DNA of 64,000 nt, from the NCBI RefSeq assembly GCF_056712565.1, contig NZ_CM160072.1, one strand, 5' to 3'. A program made the translations under genes and the position numbers. The notes beneath the pieces are model-generated. The model did not search any database, was not told the origin of the DNA, and worked only from the letters and a program-made list of their open reading frames with translations. Positions 6,731 to 38,426 of the stretch are shown here, in pieces; within the stretch, counting starts at the first letter, position 1; each line of letters opens with the position of its first letter.

Positions 6731-7058
6731 GTTCACTGCCGTACAGGCAGCTTAGAAATGACGCCATATGCAGATCATTGAGGCGAAACCGTTCACTGCC
6801 GTACAGGCAGCTTAGAAAACGTTCGCACCGGTCAGGGTACTGCGCAGCGTGTTCACTGCCGTACAGGCAGCTTAGAAAGAAACCAGAGCGCCCGCATAAA
6901 ACAGGCACAAGTTCACTGCCGTACAGGCAGCTTAGAAATGATGGCGCAGCAGTCCTCCCTCCTGCCGCCAGTTCACTGCCGTACAGGCAGCTTAGAAACT
7001 GAACGTTGAAGAGTGCGACCGTCTCTCCTTGTTCACTGCCGTACAGGCAGTATTCACA
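6731..7058 (+). CRISPR. type I-F CRISPR array upstream of cas1: 6 repeats, 5 spacers of 32 bp
   Basis: 28-bp repeat GTTCACTGCCGTACAGGCAGCTTAGAAA at 6731, 6791, 6851, 6911, 6971; terminal degenerate copy at 7031 (GTTCACTGCCGTACAGGCAGTATTCACA); exact 60-bp periodicity. Confidence 0.97.
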
Positions 7059-7230
7059 CTACGATAGTGTTAGACGTTTGGTCGTGCAATGACACTCTCA
7101 ACTTCAAACCATTAGCGTTAGCACGCAATAACAATCGTAATAATTGCGATGGAAATCAATTTTCAGCACATAAATCAATGCTGTACTAAGCCCAATACCT
7201 TCAAATATAAAATAATCACAGGATGTGTTT

Positions 7231-8214
7231 ATGTCTTCGAATTACCTTACGCCTTCCGATCTCAAAACCATTCTCCACTCCAAACGCGCCAATATTTATT
7301 ATCTGGAAAAATGCCGGGTACAGGTGAATGGTGGGCGGGTGGAGTATGTTACCAGCGAAGGTAAAGAGTCGTACTACTGGAATATCCCCATTGCGAATAC
7401 CACGGCGTTGATGCTGGGAATGGGAACTTCCGTTACCCAGGCGGCGATGCGTGAATTTGCTCATGCCGGGGTGATGGTAGGCTTTTGTGGTACGGATGGC
7501 ACGCCGCTGTATTCAGCAAATGAAGTGGATGTTGATGTCTCCTGGCTCAGCCCACAAAGTGAATATCGCCCTACAGAGTATCTCCAGCAGTGGGTTTCTT
7601 TCTGGTTTGTTGAAGACAAACGACTTGCTGCCGCGAAACGTTTTCAGTTAATCCGCCTGACACATATCGATAAGCACTGGTCCAGCTCGAAAATGCTGCG
7701 TGAACACGCATTTCAACCTGATGTTAATGCGCTGCATACCCTCCTGAATCGTACTTGTGAAGAAATAGACGCGGCAGAAAACCATACGCAGCTTATGCTC
7801 GTTGAGGCCAAATTGACTAAAGCGTTATACAAAATGGTCAGTCAAACCGTGGGGTATGGCGATTTCACTCGCGCAAAACGGGGCGGTGGTATCGATATGG
7901 CCAACCGCTTCCTCGATCAAGGGAATTATCTGGCTTATGGACTGGCAGCAGTGGCGGCGTGGGTAACAGGTATCCCGCACGGTTTAGCTGTAATGCATGG
8001 TAAGACACGTCGCGGCGGGCTTGTTTTTGACCTTGCCGATCTGATTAAAGATGCTCTTGTTATGCCGCAAGCATTTATTGCCGCAATGGCGGGAGAAGAT
8101 GCTCAGGAGTTTCGTCAACGCTGTGTTAATATCTTTCAACAAGCGGATGCGCTGGATGTCATGATCACCTCTCTGCAGGAAACGGCCCAGGCACTGGCTA
8201 AGGCTGACCAATGA
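7231..8214 (+). CDS. cas1: type I-F Cas1 integrase (track ORF begins at GTG 7225)
   Basis: 329-aa ORF; strong similarity to Pseudomonas/Yersinia I-F Cas1 as I recall it (KTILHSKRAN, LAYGLAA, HGKTRRGGLVFD). Confidence 0.9.
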   Translation: MSSNYLTPSDLKTILHSKRANIYYLEKCRVQVNGGRVEYVTSEGKESYYWNIPIANTTALMLGMGTSVTQAAMREFAHAGVMVGFCGTDGTPLYSANEVDVDVSWLSPQSEYRPTEYLQQWVSFWFVEDKRLAAAKRFQLIRLTHIDKHWSSSKMLREHAFQPDVNALHTLLNRTCEEIDAAENHTQLMLVEAKLTKALYKMVSQTVGYGDFTRAKRGGGIDMANRFLDQGNYLAYGLAAVAAWVTGIPHGLAVMHGKTRRGGLVFDLADLIKDALVMPQAFIAAMAGEDAQEFRQRCVNIFQQADALDVMITSLQETAQALAKADQ

Positions 8215-11200
8215 ATGTCCTAATTATCTCACGCTGTACGAAAAATGCTCGCGTGGAAAGCTGCCGTATTATTGATCAGTTTGCCGAACGCACTGGTGAC
8301 GCAGCATGGCAAACGGTGATTACTCTGGAAGGCGTTAATACACTCCGCCGTTTACTGCGCAAAACCGCCAGGCGAAATACCGCAGTGGCTTGTCACTGGC
8401 TGAAGAAGAATGGGCAAACGGAGCTGATGTGGATTGTCGGCAATATTCGTCGCTTTAATGCTCAAGGCCGCGTTCCCACAAATCGAACAACGCAAATCAG
8501 CCTGGTGAACAAAGAAGAAAATCGCTGGCAGTGCGCGGAAAGTATTGCACTGCTGGCGGCTATCGCTGGGCTATTTCATGATTTTGGTAAATCAGGACGC
8601 AGCTTTCAGCAAAGCCTGACTCAAAAGAATACCCGCAGTTATCAACCTTACCGACATGAATGGATTTCACTGCGGCTCTTTCAGACGTTTGTCGGTGAGC
8701 GGCCCGACGATGTGTGGCTGGCGAAGCTTGGCGAACTCACGGCAGATGATGAATCTGCGATTCTTGAGCGCCTGCAAAAAGACACTCCTCAATTTTCAAA
8801 TAGCCCGTTCAGTTCGCTGCAACCATTAGCCAAAACGGTAGGCTGGCTGATCCTTTCCCATCATCGAATGCCGGAGAATCTTTCTCCACAGTCGGAACAA
8901 TCATGTAAAGGGTGTGAAAGTTGGCTGGAGAAGCAACTTAATGCTGACTGGAATGCCGTTAACCACCGCAGAGATGACTGGTCACAACAGGATTTTGCGC
9001 ACGTCTGGCAGTTTCCATCAGGAACGCCGCTTCAAAGCGCGAGCTGGCGGGAAAAAGCGCGTCAGATAGCCCGCCGGGCAAGCAACGCGCTCGGTTTAAA
9101 GACATATGGGCAGATGGAACAGTTGTTCCCCTTACATATGGCGCGTTTTTGTCTGATGCTTGCCGATCATTACTATTCCTCAAGCGATGCGCAGCAAAAA
9201 TGGCAGGACCCGGATTATATCGTCTGGGCAAATAGCGATCGCCAAAGCGGCACGCTCAAACAACGGGTAGACGAACACCTTGTGGGCGTCGCGCATCATG
9301 CGTATCTGCTTGGGCGGCAACTGATGCACACACGGGCATCGCTTCCGGCAATTGCCCGACATAAAGGTTTTAGCCAGCGGGCTACAGATGTGAATTATCG
9401 CTGGCAAGATAAAGCCTGGGATGTGGCGCGAGCGTTACGTGAACGAAGTCGTGAAGAGGGATTTTTCGGCGTCAATATGGCCTCGACGGGGTGTGGTAAA
9501 ACCTTTGCGAACGCCCGCATTATGTATGCACTTGCCGACGAGCGAGAAGGGTGCCGCTTTACCGTTGCGCTGGGATTGCGCACGCTGACTTTACAAACCG
9601 GCGATGCTCTGCGCAGTCGGCTTGGGCTGGGTGAGGATGAGCTGGCGGTACTGATTGGTTCGGCGGCAGTTAATCAACTGTGGCAACAGGAAAAAATAGA
9701 CAATGATTGCGGAAGTGCTTCGCAAGAGTCGCCGGCAGAGGAGCAACAGTTCGTTAAGTACGAAGGCAGCCTGCATACCGGGGCGCTGGAAAAATGGTTG
9801 AAGGATGACAGCAAACTTAAGGAGTTAGTAAGCGCGCCGATTCTGGTCTCGACGATTGATCATCTTATTTCCGCGACCGAGGGCGTGCGAGGCGGGAAAC
9901 AGCTTCCGGCGATGTTGCGCCTGTTAACCAGCGATTTAGTGCTCGACGAACCTGATGACTTTGATATTGCTGATCTTCATGCGGTATGTCGATTGATGAA
10001 CTGGGCCGGGATGCTGGGAACGCGGGTATTACTTTCTTCCGCGACGTTACCGCCAGGTTTGATTCAGGCGCTGTTCGCGGCTTATCTTGCTGGGCGAAAA
10101 ATGTGGCAGGCGTCTTGTGGTATCAACGGCAGGCCTGTCAATATATGCTGCGCCTGGTTTGATGAAAAAGATGCTGATGCCACGCAAATTTACGACGGAC
10201 CTGGGTTTCGTGATGCTCATGCCAAATTTGTTGCACGACGAGCGGTAATGCTGGCTGAAAAAGAACGACTGCATTTCGGGCGTGTAGCTTCGGTTTCATC
10301 AGCATCAGGCGCGATACAAGATGTTACCGAAAGTGTGGCCCAGACGGTGCATACGCAAATGCTGAAGTTGCATCAGGCGCATCGCCAGCGACACGAAAGC
10401 GGTAAAACCGTTTCGCTGGGCCTGGTGCGCTTCGCGAATATCAATCCACTGGTTGCGGTGACCAAAGCCCTGATTGCCATTCCTTCACCAGAAGATGTCT
10501 GCATTCATTACTGTGTTTACCACTCCCGACATCCGCTGGCGGTGCGTTCAGATATTGAGAAGCGACTGGATCGCGCTTTTACTCGTCATAACGAACTCGA
10601 TTTCTGGAACAACGAAGATATCGCAGATGCCTTACATAACCGTCCGGAATCGCACCATCTGTTTGTGGTGTTGGGGACATCGGTTATAGAAGTGGGGCGT
10701 GACTGGGATGCGGACTGGGGAATTATCGAACCAAGCTCCATGCGTTCGATAATTCAATTTGCCGGACGTATTCAGCGCCACCGTAGAAATGTGCCGACCA
10801 GTGAGAATCTGGTTATTTTGCGTAGCAATATCAAATCATTGCAGAAAAAAGCCCCCGCATTTTGTAAGCCTGGTTTCGAAACAAAAGAACACTTGCTGAA
10901 TAGCCACGATATTTGCGAACTGATTCCGATCGCGGACTACCGGACGATTAACGCCTTGCCGCGGATCCTGTCTGCCAATAATGCCAACAAACTGGCGGAG
11001 CTAGAACATAGTCGTTTATCCGCCGAATTGATGAGCAGTAAAAGCAAACATGTGGTGGCGGCGCAATGGTGGCGTGCACCGCTAAGCTGGAACGGCTGGA
11101 TGCAGCGCCAGACGCCATTTCGTTATTCCCCTTTGCCGGAGGCGGTGTTTTTTCTGCATATGGATGATGAAGAAAGCGAAGCGCGTTTCTATTCCCGCAC

Positions 11201-11444
11201 GGGCGACAACGAGCGTAAAGCGCAAGGGAATTTCAGGCGAGAAGAGGTGAGATGCGCCAGCGGCGTCGCTTGCTGGGGCGTGATGGATTACCAACACGTT
11301 TTGTTGAATTTAGCTGATAAGCAAAGTTGTGAGATAGCAAACGTTGGGGAAAAGTTTGCGGAGGTGAGAGTACCCGTCAGTGAAGAAGATGCGGTCGATG
11401 ACTGGCGTTATCACCCCTGGTTAGGTGTGTTTCGCAACATGTGA
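8211..11444 (+). CDS. cas3: type I-F Cas2-Cas3 fusion (Cas2 domain, HD nuclease, SF2 helicase)
   Basis: 1077-aa ORF; N-terminal Cas2-like segment, HD motif (HDFGK), Walker A STGCGKT, DExD-like LDEPDDF; ATGA overlap with cas1. Confidence 0.9.
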   Translation: MNVLIISRCTKNARVESCRIIDQFAERTGDAAWQTVITLEGVNTLRRLLRKTARRNTAVACHWLKKNGQTELMWIVGNIRRFNAQGRVPTNRTTQISLVNKEENRWQCAESIALLAAIAGLFHDFGKSGRSFQQSLTQKNTRSYQPYRHEWISLRLFQTFVGERPDDVWLAKLGELTADDESAILERLQKDTPQFSNSPFSSLQPLAKTVGWLILSHHRMPENLSPQSEQSCKGCESWLEKQLNADWNAVNHRRDDWSQQDFAHVWQFPSGTPLQSASWREKARQIARRASNALGLKTYGQMEQLFPLHMARFCLMLADHYYSSSDAQQKWQDPDYIVWANSDRQSGTLKQRVDEHLVGVAHHAYLLGRQLMHTRASLPAIARHKGFSQRATDVNYRWQDKAWDVARALRERSREEGFFGVNMASTGCGKTFANARIMYALADEREGCRFTVALGLRTLTLQTGDALRSRLGLGEDELAVLIGSAAVNQLWQQEKIDNDCGSASQESPAEEQQFVKYEGSLHTGALEKWLKDDSKLKELVSAPILVSTIDHLISATEGVRGGKQLPAMLRLLTSDLVLDEPDDFDIADLHAVCRLMNWAGMLGTRVLLSSATLPPGLIQALFAAYLAGRKMWQASCGINGRPVNICCAWFDEKDADATQIYDGPGFRDAHAKFVARRAVMLAEKERLHFGRVASVSSASGAIQDVTESVAQTVHTQMLKLHQAHRQRHESGKTVSLGLVRFANINPLVAVTKALIAIPSPEDVCIHYCVYHSRHPLAVRSDIEKRLDRAFTRHNELDFWNNEDIADALHNRPESHHLFVVLGTSVIEVGRDWDADWGIIEPSSMRSIIQFAGRIQRHRRNVPTSENLVILRSNIKSLQKKAPAFCKPGFETKEHLLNSHDICELIPIADYRTINALPRILSANNANKLAELEHSRLSAELMSSKSKHVVAAQWWRAPLSWNGWMQRQTPFRYSPLPEAVFFLHMDDEESEARFYSRTGDNERKAQGNFRREEVRCASGVACWGVMDYQHVLLNLADKQSCEIANVGEKFAEVRVPVSEEDAVDDWRYHPWLGVFRNM

Positions 11445-11447
11445 TGG

Positions 11448-11528
11448 GGCGCGAGCTGCCTGTACGGCAGTTTACAAGTCCGTATCCGGAGATACCTCTA
11501 TTTCTAAGCTGCTCAAGGCAGTTTGGGT
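11448..11528 (-). ncRNA. candidate Cas-regulating crRNA-like RNA (CreA/CreR-like): degenerate repeat, 25-nt spacer-like segment, degenerate repeat
   Basis: minus strand reads acccaaactgccttgagcagCTTAGAAA / tagaggtatctccggatacggactt / gtaaaCTGCCGTACAGGCAGctcgcgcc; the 8-nt 5' handle and the Cas6f hairpin are conserved, the rest has decayed; possible sigma70 promoter on minus strand (-35 TTGCCA at 11552..11557, -10 TAACAT at 11529..11534). Confidence 0.55.
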
Positions 11529-11604
11529 ATGTTAGTGCTTCAACTATTGCGTGGCAAATATTAAGTTGCTTTAATATCACCTATGGTGATTACATGAGAT
11601 TTAA

Positions 11605-23617: not shown

Positions 23618-26600
23618 TTGAGCCAGGAATACACTGAAGACAAAGAAGTCACATTGACAAAGTTAAGTAGCGGCCGCCGTCTTCTGGAGGCGTTGCTGAT
23701 CCTTATTGTCCTGTTTGCCGTCTGGTTGATGGCTGCCTTACTAAGCTTTAACCCTTCGGACCCCAGCTGGTCGCAAACGGCCTGGCATGAACCTATCCAT
23801 AATTTAGGTGGGATGCCCGGTGCGTGGTTGGCAGATACGCTGTTCTTTATTTTTGGCGTGATGGCTTACACCATTCCCGTCATTATTGTCGGCGGTTGTT
23901 GGTTTGCCTGGCGTCATCAGTCCAGCGACGAATACATTGATTATTTTGCCGTTTCGCTACGCATCATTGGCGTTTTGGCGCTCATCCTTACCTCCTGTGG
24001 TCTGGCGGCAATCAACGCTGACGATATCTGGTATTTTGCCTCCGGTGGCGTCATTGGCAGCTTACTAAGCACTACGCTACAACCACTGCTACACAGTAGC
24101 GGGGGAACTATTGCGCTGCTCTGCGTTTGGGCAGCGGGCCTGACGCTGTTCACCGGTTGGTCATGGGTGACCATTGCTGAAAAACTCGGCGGCTGGATTT
24201 TAAATATTCTTACCTTCGCCAGTAATCGTACCCGTCGCGATGATACCTGGGTCGATGAAGATGAGTATGAAGACGACGAAGAGTATGAAGATGAAAATCA
24301 CGGCAAACAGCATGAATCACGCCGTGCCCGTATTCTTCGCGGCGCGCTAGCGCGTCGTAAACGGTTGGCGGAAAAATTCATTAATCCGATGGGGCGGCAA
24401 ACAGATGCTGCGCTGTTCTCCGGTAAGCGGATGGATGATGAAGAAGAGATTACCTACACTGCACGCGGTGTGGCTGCCGACCCTGACGACGTCCTGTTTT
24501 CGGGCAATCGTGCAACGCAGCCAGAATATGACGAATACGATCCATTATTAAACGGTGCGCCAATTACCGAACCTGTTGCTGTAGCAGCTGCTGCTACCAC
24601 GGCGACACAAAGCTGGGCTGCACCGGTTGAACCTGTGACTCAGACGCCGCCAGTTGCCTCTGTTGATGTTCCACCTACGCAACCTACAGTAGCCTGGCAG
24701 CCTGTACCGGGGCCGCAAACGGGAGAACCGGTTATTGCACCTGCACCGGAAGGTTACCCACAGCAGTCACAATATGCGCAGCCTGCAGTGCAATATAATG
24801 AGCCGCTGCAACAACCTGTACAGCCACAGCAGCCGTATTATGCGCCTGCGGCTGAACAGCCTGTGCAACAACCTTACTACGCTCCTGCGCCGGAACAGTC
24901 TGCGCAACAGCCGTATTACGCCCCTGCGCCAGAACAACCGGTGGCAGGTAACGCCTGGCAAGCCGAAGAGCAGCAATCCACTTTTGCTCCACAGTCTACA
25001 TACCAGACGGAGCAAACTTATCAGCAGCCAGCCGCTCAGGAGCCGTTGTACCAACAGCCGCAACCCGTTGAACAGCAGCCTGTTGTGGAGCCTGAACCCG
25101 TTGTAGAAGAGACAAAACCCACGCGTCCGCCGCTTTACTATTTTGAAGAAGTGGAAGAGAAGCGAGCCCGTGAACGTGAACAACTTGCGGCCTGGTATCA
25201 ACCGATTCCAGAACCGGTTAAAGAACCGGAACCGATCAAATCTTCGCTGAAAGCACCTTCTGTTGCAGCAGTACCTCCAGTAGAAGCCGCTGCCGCTGTT
25301 TCTCCGCTGGCATCTGGTGTGAAAAAAGCGACACTGGCGACGGGGGCTGCCGCAACCGTTGCCGCGCCAGTCTTCAGTCTGGCAAATGGCGGTGGACCGC
25401 GTCCGCAGGTCAAAGAGGGGATTGGCCCGCAGTTGCCACGACCGAAACGCATCCGCGTGCCAACTCGTCGTGAACTGGCGTCTTACGGTATTAAGCTGCC
25501 CTCACAGCGTGCGGCAGAAGAAAAAGCCCGTGAAGCCCAGCGTAATCAGTACGATTCTGGCGATCAGTACAACGATGATGAAATCGATGCGATGCAGCAG
25601 GATGAACTGGCACGTCAGTTCGCCCAGACGCAGCAGCAACGCTATGGCGAACAGTATCAACATGATGTGCCCGTGAACACAGAAGATGCAGATGCTGCGG
25701 CAGAGGCAGAACTGGCTCGTCAGTTTGCTCAAACTCAACAACAACGTTATTCCGGCGAACAACCGGCTGGGGCGAATCCGTTCTCGCTGGATGATTTTGA
25801 ATTTTCGCCAATGAAAGCGTTGCTGGATGATGGTCCACACGAACCGCTGTTTACGCCAATTGTTGAACCTGTACAGCAGCCGCAACAACCGGTAGCACCG
25901 CAGCAGCAATATCAGCAGCCGCAACAACCGGTAGCACCGCAGCAGCAATATCAGCAGCCGCAACAACCGGTTGCACCGCAGCCGCAGTATCAGCAGCCGC
26001 AATATCAGCAGCCACAACAGCCGGTTGCACAGCAGCCGCAATATCAGCAGCCACAACAACCGGTTGCACAGCAGCCGCAGTATCAGCAGCCACAACAGCC
26101 GGTTGTATCACAGCCGCAGGATACCCTGCTTCATCCGCTGTTGATGCGTAATGGCGACAGCCGTCCGTTGCATAAACCGACGACGCCACTGCCTTCTCTG
26201 GATTTGCTGACACCGCCGCCGAGCGAAGTGGAGCCGGTAGATACCTTTGCGCTTGAACAAATGGCGCGCCTGGTAGAAGCGCGTCTGGCTGATTTCCGTA
26301 TTAAAGCCGATGTTGTCAATTACTCTCCGGGGCCAGTTATCACTCGCTTTGAATTGAACCTGGCACCGGGCGTAAAAGCAGCGCGCATTTCTAACTTGTC
26401 ACGTGACCTTGCCCGTTCACTTTCGACGGTGGCGGTGCGTGTCGTTGAAGTTATTCCTGGCAAACCCTATGTAGGTCTGGAGTTACCGAATAAAAAACGA
26501 CAAACCGTTTATCTGCGCGAAGTTTTGGATAACGCCAAATTCCGCGATAATCCGTCGCCATTAACCGTGGTGCTGGGTAAAGATATCGCCGGTGAGCCGG

Positions 26601-36319: not shown

Positions 36320-37468
36320 ATGTCCACGTATACCCGGCCTGTCATGCTTTTGCTGTCTGGCCTGCTTTTGTTGACTCTGGCGATTGCGGTGTTAAATACA
36401 CTCGTGCCGCTTTGGCTCGCCCAGGAACACATGTCTACATGGCAGGTAGGCGTTGTCAGCTCATCCTATTTTACCGGCAACCTTGTCGGTACATTGCTGA
36501 CAGGGTATGTCATTAAACGCATTGGCTTTAACCGTAGCTATTATCTGGCCTCCTTCATTTTTGCCGCTGGCTGTGCCGGCCTTGGCCTGATGATTGGATT
36601 CTGGAGTTGGTTGGCGTGGCGTTTTGTCGCTGGCATCGGCTGTGCCATGATTTGGGTGGTTGTTGAGAGTGCGCTGATGTGCAGTGGGACGTCGCGTAAC
36701 CGCGGGCGGTTGCTTGCTGCGTATATGATGGTTTATTACGTCGGAACGTTTTTAGGCCAGTTACTGGTCAGCAAAGTCTCAACCGAGTTGATGAGTGTAT
36801 TGCCGTGGGTTACAGGTTTGACGTTGGCAGGAATCTTACCGCTGTTGTTTACGCATGTCCTGAATCAGCAGGCTGAAAACCATGATTCGACGTCAATTAC
36901 GTCAATGCTAAAACTCCGTCAGGCACGGCTTGGCGTGAATGGCTGCATTATCTCAGGAATCGTGCTGGGATCTCTATATGGCCTGATGCCGCTGTACCTC
37001 AATCACAAAGGGGTGAGCAATGCCAGCATTGGTTTCTGGATGGCGGTACTGGTCAGTGCGGGTATCCTCGGGCAATGGCCGATTGGACGTCTGGCGGATA
37101 AGTTTGGTCGACTGCTGGTGTTGCGTGTTCAGGTCTTTGTCGTCATTCTCGGCAGTATTGCGATGCTTAGCCAGGCGGCGATGGCCCCAGCGTTATTCAT
37201 CCTCGGTGCCGCTGGCTTTACGCTATATCCGGTGGCGATGGCCTGGGCTTGTGAGAAAGTTGAACATCATCAACTGGTAGCGATGAACCAGGCCTTACTG
37301 TTGAGCTATACCGTGGGAAGCCTGCTTGGCCCGTCATTTACCGCTATGCTAATGCAGAATTTCTCCGATAATTTATTATTTATCATGATCGCCAGCGTAT
37401 CGTTTATCTATTTGCTGATGCTGCTTCGCAACGCCGGTCATACGCCGAAACCCGTGGCTCACGTGTAA
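36320..37468 (+). CDS. ycaD: MFS transporter YcaD
   Basis: 382-aa ORF with about 12 predicted TM helices. Confidence 0.88.
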
Positions 37469-37477
37469 ATGAATTCA

Positions 37478-37516
37478 AGCAGAGTGTGAACTTACTGTTT
37501 CACACTCTGCTTTTCT
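37478..37516 (+). terminator. ycaD rho-independent terminator
   Basis: near-perfect inverted repeat AGCAGAGTGTGAA/TTCACACTCTGCT followed by TTTTCTG. Confidence 0.65.
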
Positions 37517-37522
37517 GTGCAC

Positions 37523-37552
37523 AAAAAAGCGGCAACTTAATAAAGTTGCCGC
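37523..37552 (-). terminator. pflA rho-independent terminator
   Basis: GCGGCAACTT/AAGTTGCCGC hairpin with a U-run in the minus transcript. Confidence 0.65.
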
Positions 37553-37564
37553 TTTACGGGGAAA

Positions 37565-38305
37565 TTAGAACATGACCTTATGACCGTACTGCTCAAGAAT
37601 GCCTTTCACGCGTTCCATGGTCTCTTTCTTCGGTGGTTTAACACCATCGAGTTTGTATTCTTCACCCATTGCCACCCATTTGTGTTTGCCCAGTTCGTGG
37701 TAGGGGAGGAGCTCGATTTTCTCAACGTTGCCCATATCACGGGTAAATTCACCAAGGCGATGCGCTGAATCGTCATCGTCAGACCAGCCTGGGACAACAA
37801 CATAGCGGATCCACACCTTCACATTTTTGTTCGCCAGATATTTAGCGAACTCCAGCGTGCGGTGGTTGGAAACTCCAACCAGATTTTGGTGGATCTCGTC
37901 GTTCATCTGTTTGAGATCGAGCATTACCAGGTCGGTTACTTCCAGCAGTTCATCAATCACCGGATCGTAACGACGAACAAAACCGTTGGTGTCCAGACAG
38001 GTATGAATGCCTTCTTTTTTGCAGGCGCGGAACCAGTCACGAACAAACTCAGCTTGTAGGATTGCCTCACCGCCGGATGCGGTAACGCCGCCGCCGGAAG
38101 CGTTCATAAAGTGGCGATAGGTCACCACTTCCTTCATCAAATCTTCAACGGTAACTTCTTTACCGCCATGCGTATCCCAGGTGTCGCGGTTATGACAATA
38201 CAGGCAGCGCATCAGGCAGCCCTGGAAAAAGGTGATAAAGCGAATACCCGGGCCGTCTACGGTTCCACAGGATTCAAAGGAGTGAATGCGACCAATAACT
38301 GACAT
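37565..38305 (-). CDS. pflA: pyruvate formate-lyase activating enzyme
   Basis: 246-aa product [23 protein letters not shown]; radical-SAM CxxxCxxC. Confidence 0.93.
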
Positions 38306-38426
38306 TGCGGTGTTTCTCCAGATGTGGCCCATCTGAGGCCGTGTTGGTGCGCAGCTCGAAGGCTACGTCGAGTCTGTTTTGGCAGTCACCTTAAAGTATA
38401 GATAGCTGACAAAAAAGGCTCTCGTG

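Follow-up and report, generated by a model that had tools for sequence, protein, structure and literature searches.

A 96-bp spacer between ycaD and pflA as the probable scar of an old deletion in a large Escherichia coli lineage

Why do ycaD and pflA face each other across fewer than a hundred base pairs in some E. coli genomes when, in K-12, they do not? The original prediction placed ycaM, ycaN and ycaK between ycaD and pflA in K-12, and the annotation of MG1655 (NC_000913.3) agrees, giving the order ycaD, ycaM, ycaN, ycaK, pflA. In the stretch of DNA analysed here (64 kb, the window in what follows), the three genes appeared to be absent. The question is therefore whether the short spacer is what is left after a loss, or whether the adjacency of ycaD and pflA is the older state to which K-12 added genes.

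The window itself is readily placed. The E. coli type strain, ATCC 11775 (DSM 30083; NZ_CP033092.2), matches a 1.2-kb probe spanning the spacer with 100% identity, and a 12-kb comparison elsewhere yields 2 mismatches against the same record. The two also differ in length by 39 nt, probably in the ftsK repeats. With at least 99.98% identity to ATCC 11775, the window is, judging from these matches, that strain or a near-identical genome. The type strain has been assigned to phylotype B2 (PMC4334874). The features of the locus, in window coordinates, are as follows.

36320..37468, plus strand: ycaD, MFS transporter, complete, 382 aa; an open reading frame annotated as ycaD in NZ_CP033092.2, with 99% amino acid identity to K-12 YcaD.
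37469..37564: the ycaD-pflA spacer, 96 bp, between convergent genes.
37477..37518, plus strand: predicted intrinsic terminator of ycaD; 14-bp perfect stem (37477-37490 / 37499-37512), 8-nt loop, T-rich tail TTTTCTGT.
37519..37522, no strand: deletion junction GCAC, 4 bp without a K-12 counterpart, in place of K-12 947,070-950,297 (3,228 bp) or of 1,757 bp of the O157-type allele.
37523..37555, minus strand: predicted intrinsic terminator of pflA; perfect 13-nt arms (37526-37538 / 37543-37555), 4-nt loop.
37565..38305, minus strand: pflA, pyruvate formate-lyase 1 activating enzyme, complete, 246 aa; so annotated in the matching record NZ_CP033092.2, with 100% amino acid identity to K-12 PflA.

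The gene ends proposed at the outset (ycaD on the plus strand ending at 37468, pflA on the minus strand at 37565, with a 96-bp gap) are also those of the open reading frame listing, in which the pflA frame runs from 37565 to 38332 and is thus longer than the annotated gene. A promoter scan returned no promoter-like sites in or near the spacer, and no Rfam family was found within it: two sub-threshold chance matches reached 18.9 and 16.5 bits, where the gathering scores are 72 and 100, and a known RNA in the spacer was rejected.

What the spacer does contain is two hairpins. The original prediction had described two strong opposed hairpins at 37478..37516 and 37523..37552; the same two objects are present, but their coordinates need shifting by a few bases. 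Folded as RNA in the sense of ycaD, hairpin 1 has a dG of -22.1 kcal/mol (z -4.6 versus shuffles) and is followed by UUUUCUGUG; its T-rich tail TTTTCTGT overlaps the base of the stem. Hairpin 2, folded as RNA on the minus strand, has a dG of -19.9 kcal/mol (z -5.3 versus shuffles) and is followed by UUUUUUGUG. It has a G+C core (37529-37538 / 37543-37552), and on the minus strand the stem gives way to UUUUUU, the complement of 37523-37528, and then to GUG. Both are G+C-rich stem-loops in the range of about 5-14 bp with a short loop, both continue into a U-run in the expected direction (GCUUUUCUGUG on the plus strand after hairpin 1, GCUUUUUUGUG on the minus strand after hairpin 2), and both are suitably placed, 8 nt past the ycaD stop and 9 nt past the pflA stop, respectively. 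By chance, 96 nt would be expected to hold about 6e-6 perfect hairpins of 13 bp or longer.

Because each hairpin leads into a U-run when read in the sense of its own gene, we predict the two to be convergent Rho-independent terminators of textbook form, and we infer that they terminate transcription in vivo. A consensus terminator scan called hairpin 1 on the minus strand only and missed hairpin 2; this is a limitation of the tool, whose longest-stem rule uses up the A/T runs as stem, and does not count against the terminators. A short A/T run also borders each hairpin on the far side, so each might act in part bidirectionally. Conservation agrees with the terminator reading, in that each hairpin travels with its own gene in K-12, O157, E. 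albertii and other Escherichia. The ycaD terminator lies 8 nt past the ycaD stop in all E. coli alleles, with or without ycaM as the next gene, and is kept with substitutions in other Escherichia species; the pflA terminator is conserved beside pflA throughout the same set.

Alignment to K-12 then locates the missing DNA precisely. Window position 37518 corresponds to K-12 947,069 (L001:3070) and window position 37523 to K-12 950,298 (L001:6299), with GCAC in between. An adjacency of ycaD and pflA in K-12, which would have undone the argument, was not found at the locus; both terminators are present there unchanged, 3.2 kb apart. The shortfall relative to K-12 is 3,228 bp, within the 3-4 kb that had been estimated, and the suspected absence of ycaM-ycaN-ycaK holds up across the window: no homologue of YcaM, YcaN or YcaK (at least 45% identity, E of at most 1e-10) occurs anywhere in its 64 kb. 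The left breakpoint lies directly past the U-run of the ycaD terminator and the right breakpoint directly ahead of the A-run (that is, the minus-strand U-run) of the pflA terminator. The locus thus has the form of a lineage deletion, with flanks collinear with the full allele and the intervening DNA gone.

Can the breakpoints tell us how the DNA was lost? No convincing microhomology, direct repeat or target-site duplication was found at them, either against K-12 or against the O157-type allele, and the short matches that do occur (CTGT, TGTGCA, CTGTGC) are at the level expected by chance for 4-6-mers in 2-3 kb. We also considered the K-12 segment as a genomic island or mobile element and rejected the idea: it holds only ycaM, ycaN and ycaK, has no repeats at its edges and no tRNA nearby, and its sole island-like sign is a slightly low G+C content (45%). 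Foreign replacement, by recombination with a species in which ycaD and pflA are natively adjacent, is ruled out by the flanks and both terminators, which are typical E. coli sequence.

It had further been suggested that the locus is a second strain-variable point in an otherwise core region. That it is a genuine strain-variable point stands: it is one of only two large indels relative to K-12 in the 64 kb, the window being otherwise collinear. The absence is not confined to this strain, being shared by what looks to be a large clade, about 19% of complete genomes, in which B2 members were verified. The other indel is a type I-F CRISPR-Cas locus (window 6731-16507) between clpA and infA, without a counterpart in K-12. 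It comprises cas1f, cas3f, csy1, csy2, csy3 and cas6f, flanked by two CRISPR arrays, one to either side; the annotation gives csy2 an internal stop and pseudogene status, and a tRNA-Ser(GGA) lies beside the locus (15689-15776). Separately, the ftsK linker region carries tandem repeats with a 39-nt period (window 24833-24943 and 25874-26118), at which BLAST segments against K-12 overlap. The 39-nt difference between the window and NZ_CP033092.2 falls somewhere between 17225 and 36900, and the copy number of the ftsK repeats probably varies even between assemblies of near-identical strains.

How widespread is the junction? Among 5,426 complete E. coli genomes, ycaD and pflA are contiguous, as in the window, in 1,048; a 201-bp junction probe gives 1,046. 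The K-12 segment is present at 80% coverage or more in 3,316 genomes and at least in part in 4,377, and in 1,022 of the 5,426 the interval holds ycaM, a 111-bp ycaN 3' pseudogene and the last ycaK bases, followed by the pflA terminator. The contiguous and the segment-bearing genomes (1,048 + 4,377) add up to 5,425, which is every genome having the flanks. The two sets thus look complementary and, because the counts exhaust the flank-bearing genomes, ycaM, ycaN and ycaK appear not to be located elsewhere in genomes of the junction type. In all other genomes, split matches of the probe break at the same query positions.

We read the spacer itself in five genomes: ATCC 11775, ST131 EC958, GABEEC10, Q5 and EPEC E2348/69. 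All five share the breakpoint and the GCAC, and the only differences among their spacers are one to three substitutions, in hairpin 2. Over ycaD and pflA, identity to the window reaches 99% or more in 1,031 genomes, compared to 97-98.5% for the sampled split-match genomes. These close shared flanks fit a single clade sharing one event. EC958 and E2348/69 are strains that we take to belong to phylogroup B2. A common breakpoint in 1,046-1,048 genomes and identical junction letters in the five read, with phylogroup checked for a handful of the ~1,047, suggest that a large clade which includes B2 members lacks ycaM, ycaN and ycaK. (In E2348/69, as a separate matter, RefSeq annotates the neighbouring dmsA with an internal stop and ycaC as frameshifted; L096 1472-5988.)

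This distribution bears on two alternatives. One might suppose that the junction is an artefact or private to one strain, the product of assembly collapse or of a recent laboratory deletion. Apart from the age of the type strain as a culture-collection strain, nothing speaks for this. The same junction is found in more than 1,000 complete genomes that were assembled independently and are of human, animal and water origin, E2348/69 and EC958 among them, which makes the idea a negligible prospect. Alternatively, imagine that the hairpins or A/T tracts cause the same junction to form again and again, so that the ~1,047 genomes do not share it by descent. The locus is certainly prone to deletion, with at least three different ycaN-ycaK deletion junctions in Escherichia and an IS1-associated deletion in H9Ecoli. 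However, those independent events all differ in their endpoints, whereas the B2-type genomes examined share not only both breakpoints but also the orphan GCAC, and the contiguous genomes are set apart by their flanks in the manner just described. We consider recurrence very improbable and take the identical GCAC junction in ATCC 11775, EC958, GABEEC10, Q5 and E2348/69 as a sign of what was apparently a single event.

A shared junction does not by itself tell us whether DNA was lost in one lineage or gained in the other. We therefore scanned for ycaD, using one genome per species, and mapped the K-12 proteins onto the resulting 80 loci. In all five non-coli Escherichia loci (E. albertii, Escherichia sp. 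E1V33, MOD1-EC7003, SCPM-O-B-8794 and E69), ycaM is next to ycaD, and it also follows ycaD in Salmonella enterica subsp. arizonae and diarizonae, in most Citrobacter, and in Kluyvera and Yokenella. Within Escherichia, the same ycaD terminator precedes ycaM, and a motif upstream of ycaM is conserved as far out as Salmonella and Citrobacter. Given that ycaM adjoins ycaD in the outgroups, ycaM is ancestral to the Escherichia-Salmonella-Citrobacter group, and the B2 state, including that of the window, is a derived deletion as opposed to an ancestral absence. The outgroups thus carry the missing DNA, ycaM at the site itself and ycaN-ycaK by way of remnants in Escherichia. Since the Escherichia alleles without ycaN-ycaK keep a 3' fragment of ycaN, loss is the direction of change at the locus.

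Is it nonetheless conceivable that adjacency is primitive in B2, and that the K-12 lineage gained ycaM-ycaN-ycaK by insertion? Across the 72 loci that contain both ycaD and pflA, the two genes are directly adjacent in 21, separated by ycaM in 23 and by other DNA in 28, a split that makes the interval a general variable spot. The 21 adjacent loci (spacers of 36-185 bp; for example Enterobacter soli, Trabulsiella, Buttiauxella, Siccibacter and Citrobacter koseri) mean that adjacency may be the deep ancestral state of the family, and the G+C content of the K-12 segment, at 45.4%, is lower than that of ycaD (52%) and pflA (50%). Against this, all close outgroups (E. albertii, other Escherichia, Salmonella, most Citrobacter) have ycaM at the site, behind the same ycaD terminator and with its conserved upstream sequence; E. 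coli of phylogroups D and E also have ycaM; and the spacers of the natively adjacent loci (L010) are not homologous to the B2 spacer, which consists of two E. coli terminators joined together. An ancestral absence in B2 is accordingly given very little credence.

Some further variation was seen in the same survey. Where unrelated DNA separates ycaD and pflA (28 of 72 species, L010-L084), it measures ~0.65-0.69 kb in Enterobacter, Lelliottia and Leclercia and ~5 kb in Klebsiella and Raoultella. One locus, L054, has ycaN-ycaK homologues without ycaM in the ycaD-pflA interval. Two Salmonella loci (L015 5654-7338, L022 12249-13912) have ~1.7 kb extra between pflA and pflB, where E. coli has ~190 bp.

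If DNA was lost, how much of it went in the event that produced the B2 junction? The answer depends on which allele was deleted. The allele with ycaM plus remnants is carried, among others, by O157:H7 and O55:H7 (phylogroup E) and by ST69 (phylogroup D); it lies at L003 6591-6799 in O157:H7 and at L086 7690-7898 in ST69, with ~1.5 kb missing. Similar structures are found outside the species. The four non-coli Escherichia loci that contain pflA (E. albertii, L008 10787-11001; L005, L006 and L009) lack ycaN-ycaK and keep 100-160 bp of the ycaN 3' end together with the ycaK 3' terminus. The ycaN remnant encodes FQMYYPNRQYMSCGLRAFLDYVKT, which matches the conserved C-terminus (a LysR C-terminus) of a 68%-identical YcaN homologue from a distant enterobacterium, so that the Escherichia ycaN fragments are true deletion remnants. 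At least three ycaN-ycaK deletion junction types can be told apart in Escherichia: that of O157, ST69 and E. albertii, the E. albertii junction aligning with that of O157/ST69; that of SCPM and E1V33; and that of MOD1-EC7003. A further, rare form is that of H9Ecoli (L004 4150-5084), in which an IS1 sits directly past the ycaD terminator and everything as far as the last ycaK bases is gone, an independent, recent IS1-associated loss of ycaM-ycaN-ycaK from a K-12-type allele. This independent loss shows the ycaM-ycaN-ycaK segment to be dispensable.

A two-step history consequently has to be weighed, in which the ancestor of B2 was already reduced to ycaM, its ycaN-ycaK deleted as in O157:H7, ST69 and E. 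albertii, and the B2 event took only ~1,757 bp instead of 3,228 bp. The remnant allele is present in E. coli of phylogroups D and E (1,022 genomes in all), the four non-coli Escherichia loci containing pflA have the same junction or one like it, and intact ycaN-ycaK are seen only in K-12-type E. coli, the one counterpart among the 80 species-representative loci being the distant homologue in L054. However, no deleted DNA survives in B2 to reveal the substrate, and both alleles contain the sequence in which the right breakpoint (K-12 950,298) falls. We regard two steps as a serious contender, falling just short of an even chance: because D, E and all outgroups carry the remnant allele, the 1.76-kb event is about equally likely as the 3.2-kb event, a balance struck on alleles of phylogroups A, D and E and of other Escherichia, the closest relatives of B2 being phylogroups F and G. 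As an aside on phylogroup F, genes of the K-12 2.1-2.2 Mb region are located at ~0.92-1.03 Mb in the reference genomes IAI39 and SMS-3-5 (L085, L093, L094), indicating a large chromosomal inversion shared by the two.

The essentially identical ycaN-ycaK deletion junction of E. coli D/E and E. albertii, with the genes kept intact in phylogroup A (K-12) and other K-12-type genomes, raises the more speculative prospect that the ycaD-pflA interval is, beyond a simple B2 deletion, a long-lived presence/absence polymorphism. We hold this to be rather unlikely. If it were true, both alleles would either predate the species split or have moved between Escherichia species by homologous recombination; this apparent sharing is the only mildly interesting lead that the locus offers.

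Taking these observations together, we are confident, if short of certain, that the spacer marks where a piece of the chromosome was lost long ago, in a deletion now fixed across a large E. coli lineage to which B2 and ATCC 11775 belong. The anatomy of the spacer, its junction, its distribution and the polarity of the change (loss, not gain) are matters of observation; the mechanism of deletion, given that no microhomology was found and that the 4-bp GCAC is unexplained, is one that we infer. The simplest scenario would be a single deletion by illegitimate recombination in the ancestor of the lineage that includes B2, which would have removed ycaM along with either intact ycaN and ycaK (3.2 kb) or their remnants (1.76 kb), through breakpoints in the A/T-rich tracts directly beyond the ycaD and pflA terminator hairpins. 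Because the breakpoints lie beyond the hairpins, both flanking genes keep their own terminators, and the facing terminators, ~10 nt apart, should together block convergent transcription into the opposite gene. Selection may have favoured breakpoints that spare both terminators; that breakpoints at the locus fall repeatedly just outside the two could be the mark of selection against transcripts running convergently into pflA and ycaD.

What, if anything, does the lineage forgo? The products absent at the locus are those of uncharacterised y-genes: YcaM, a putative APC-family permease; YcaN, a LysR regulator; and YcaK, a flavin-type NAD(P)H oxidoreductase. In K-12, deletion of ycaN has been reported to change the expression of ycaC, ycaD and focA (PMC9068703). 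K-12 has the YcaN regulator at the locus whereas the strain studied here has no such regulator there and, in view of the reported effect, genes around the pfl operon may be regulated differently in K-12 and in B2 strains, which calls for caution when K-12 regulatory maps are transferred to pathogenic lineages. Otherwise, documenting the absence of YcaM, YcaN and YcaK in B2 strains, including the type strain, ST131 and EPEC E2348/69, is of little importance beyond bookkeeping. A literature search for the absence of ycaM, ycaN and ycaK in B2 returned no paper dedicated to it; this is ordinary pan-genome variation, already visible as a state annotated in more than 1,000 public genomes, and nothing about it is unexpected. 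In practical terms, the 96-bp spacer provides a simple PCR or in-silico marker against the ~1.85 kb or ~3.3 kb found in other alleles.

How does the locus compare with systems already known? Its nearest relative is the K-12 MG1655 locus (b0898-b0902), which has the same flanks (dmsABC, ycaC and ycaD on one side; pflA, pflB and focA on the other) and the same terminator hairpins, at 97-98.5% nucleotide identity, but differs by the extra 3,228 bp that encode YcaM, YcaN and YcaK (APC permease, LysR regulator and NAD(P)H oxidoreductase, respectively). The O157:H7/ST69 allele (ycaD-ycaM-'ycaN-pflA) is likewise a natural deletion of the same interval between the same two terminators and is similarly frequent; unlike the B2 allele, it keeps ycaM, the ycaN pseudogene and the end of ycaK, and its breakpoints lie elsewhere (K-12 L001 4773 / 6285). 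Native ycaD-pflA adjacency, as in Enterobacter soli, Trabulsiella, Siccibacter and Citrobacter koseri, resembles the window in its convergent order and short spacers, but these spacers are unrelated to the E. coli one, that of C. koseri carrying a REP-like palindrome; such adjacency represents different histories, ycaM having either never been gained or been lost independently. Finally, the spacer shares with convergent gene pairs that have back-to-back Rho-independent terminators the two G+C-rich stem-loops, each with a U-run in its own direction, 8-9 nt past the stops. The difference is one of origin: here the close apposition is secondary, made by the deletion, whereas in K-12 the same two hairpins stand ~3.2 kb apart.
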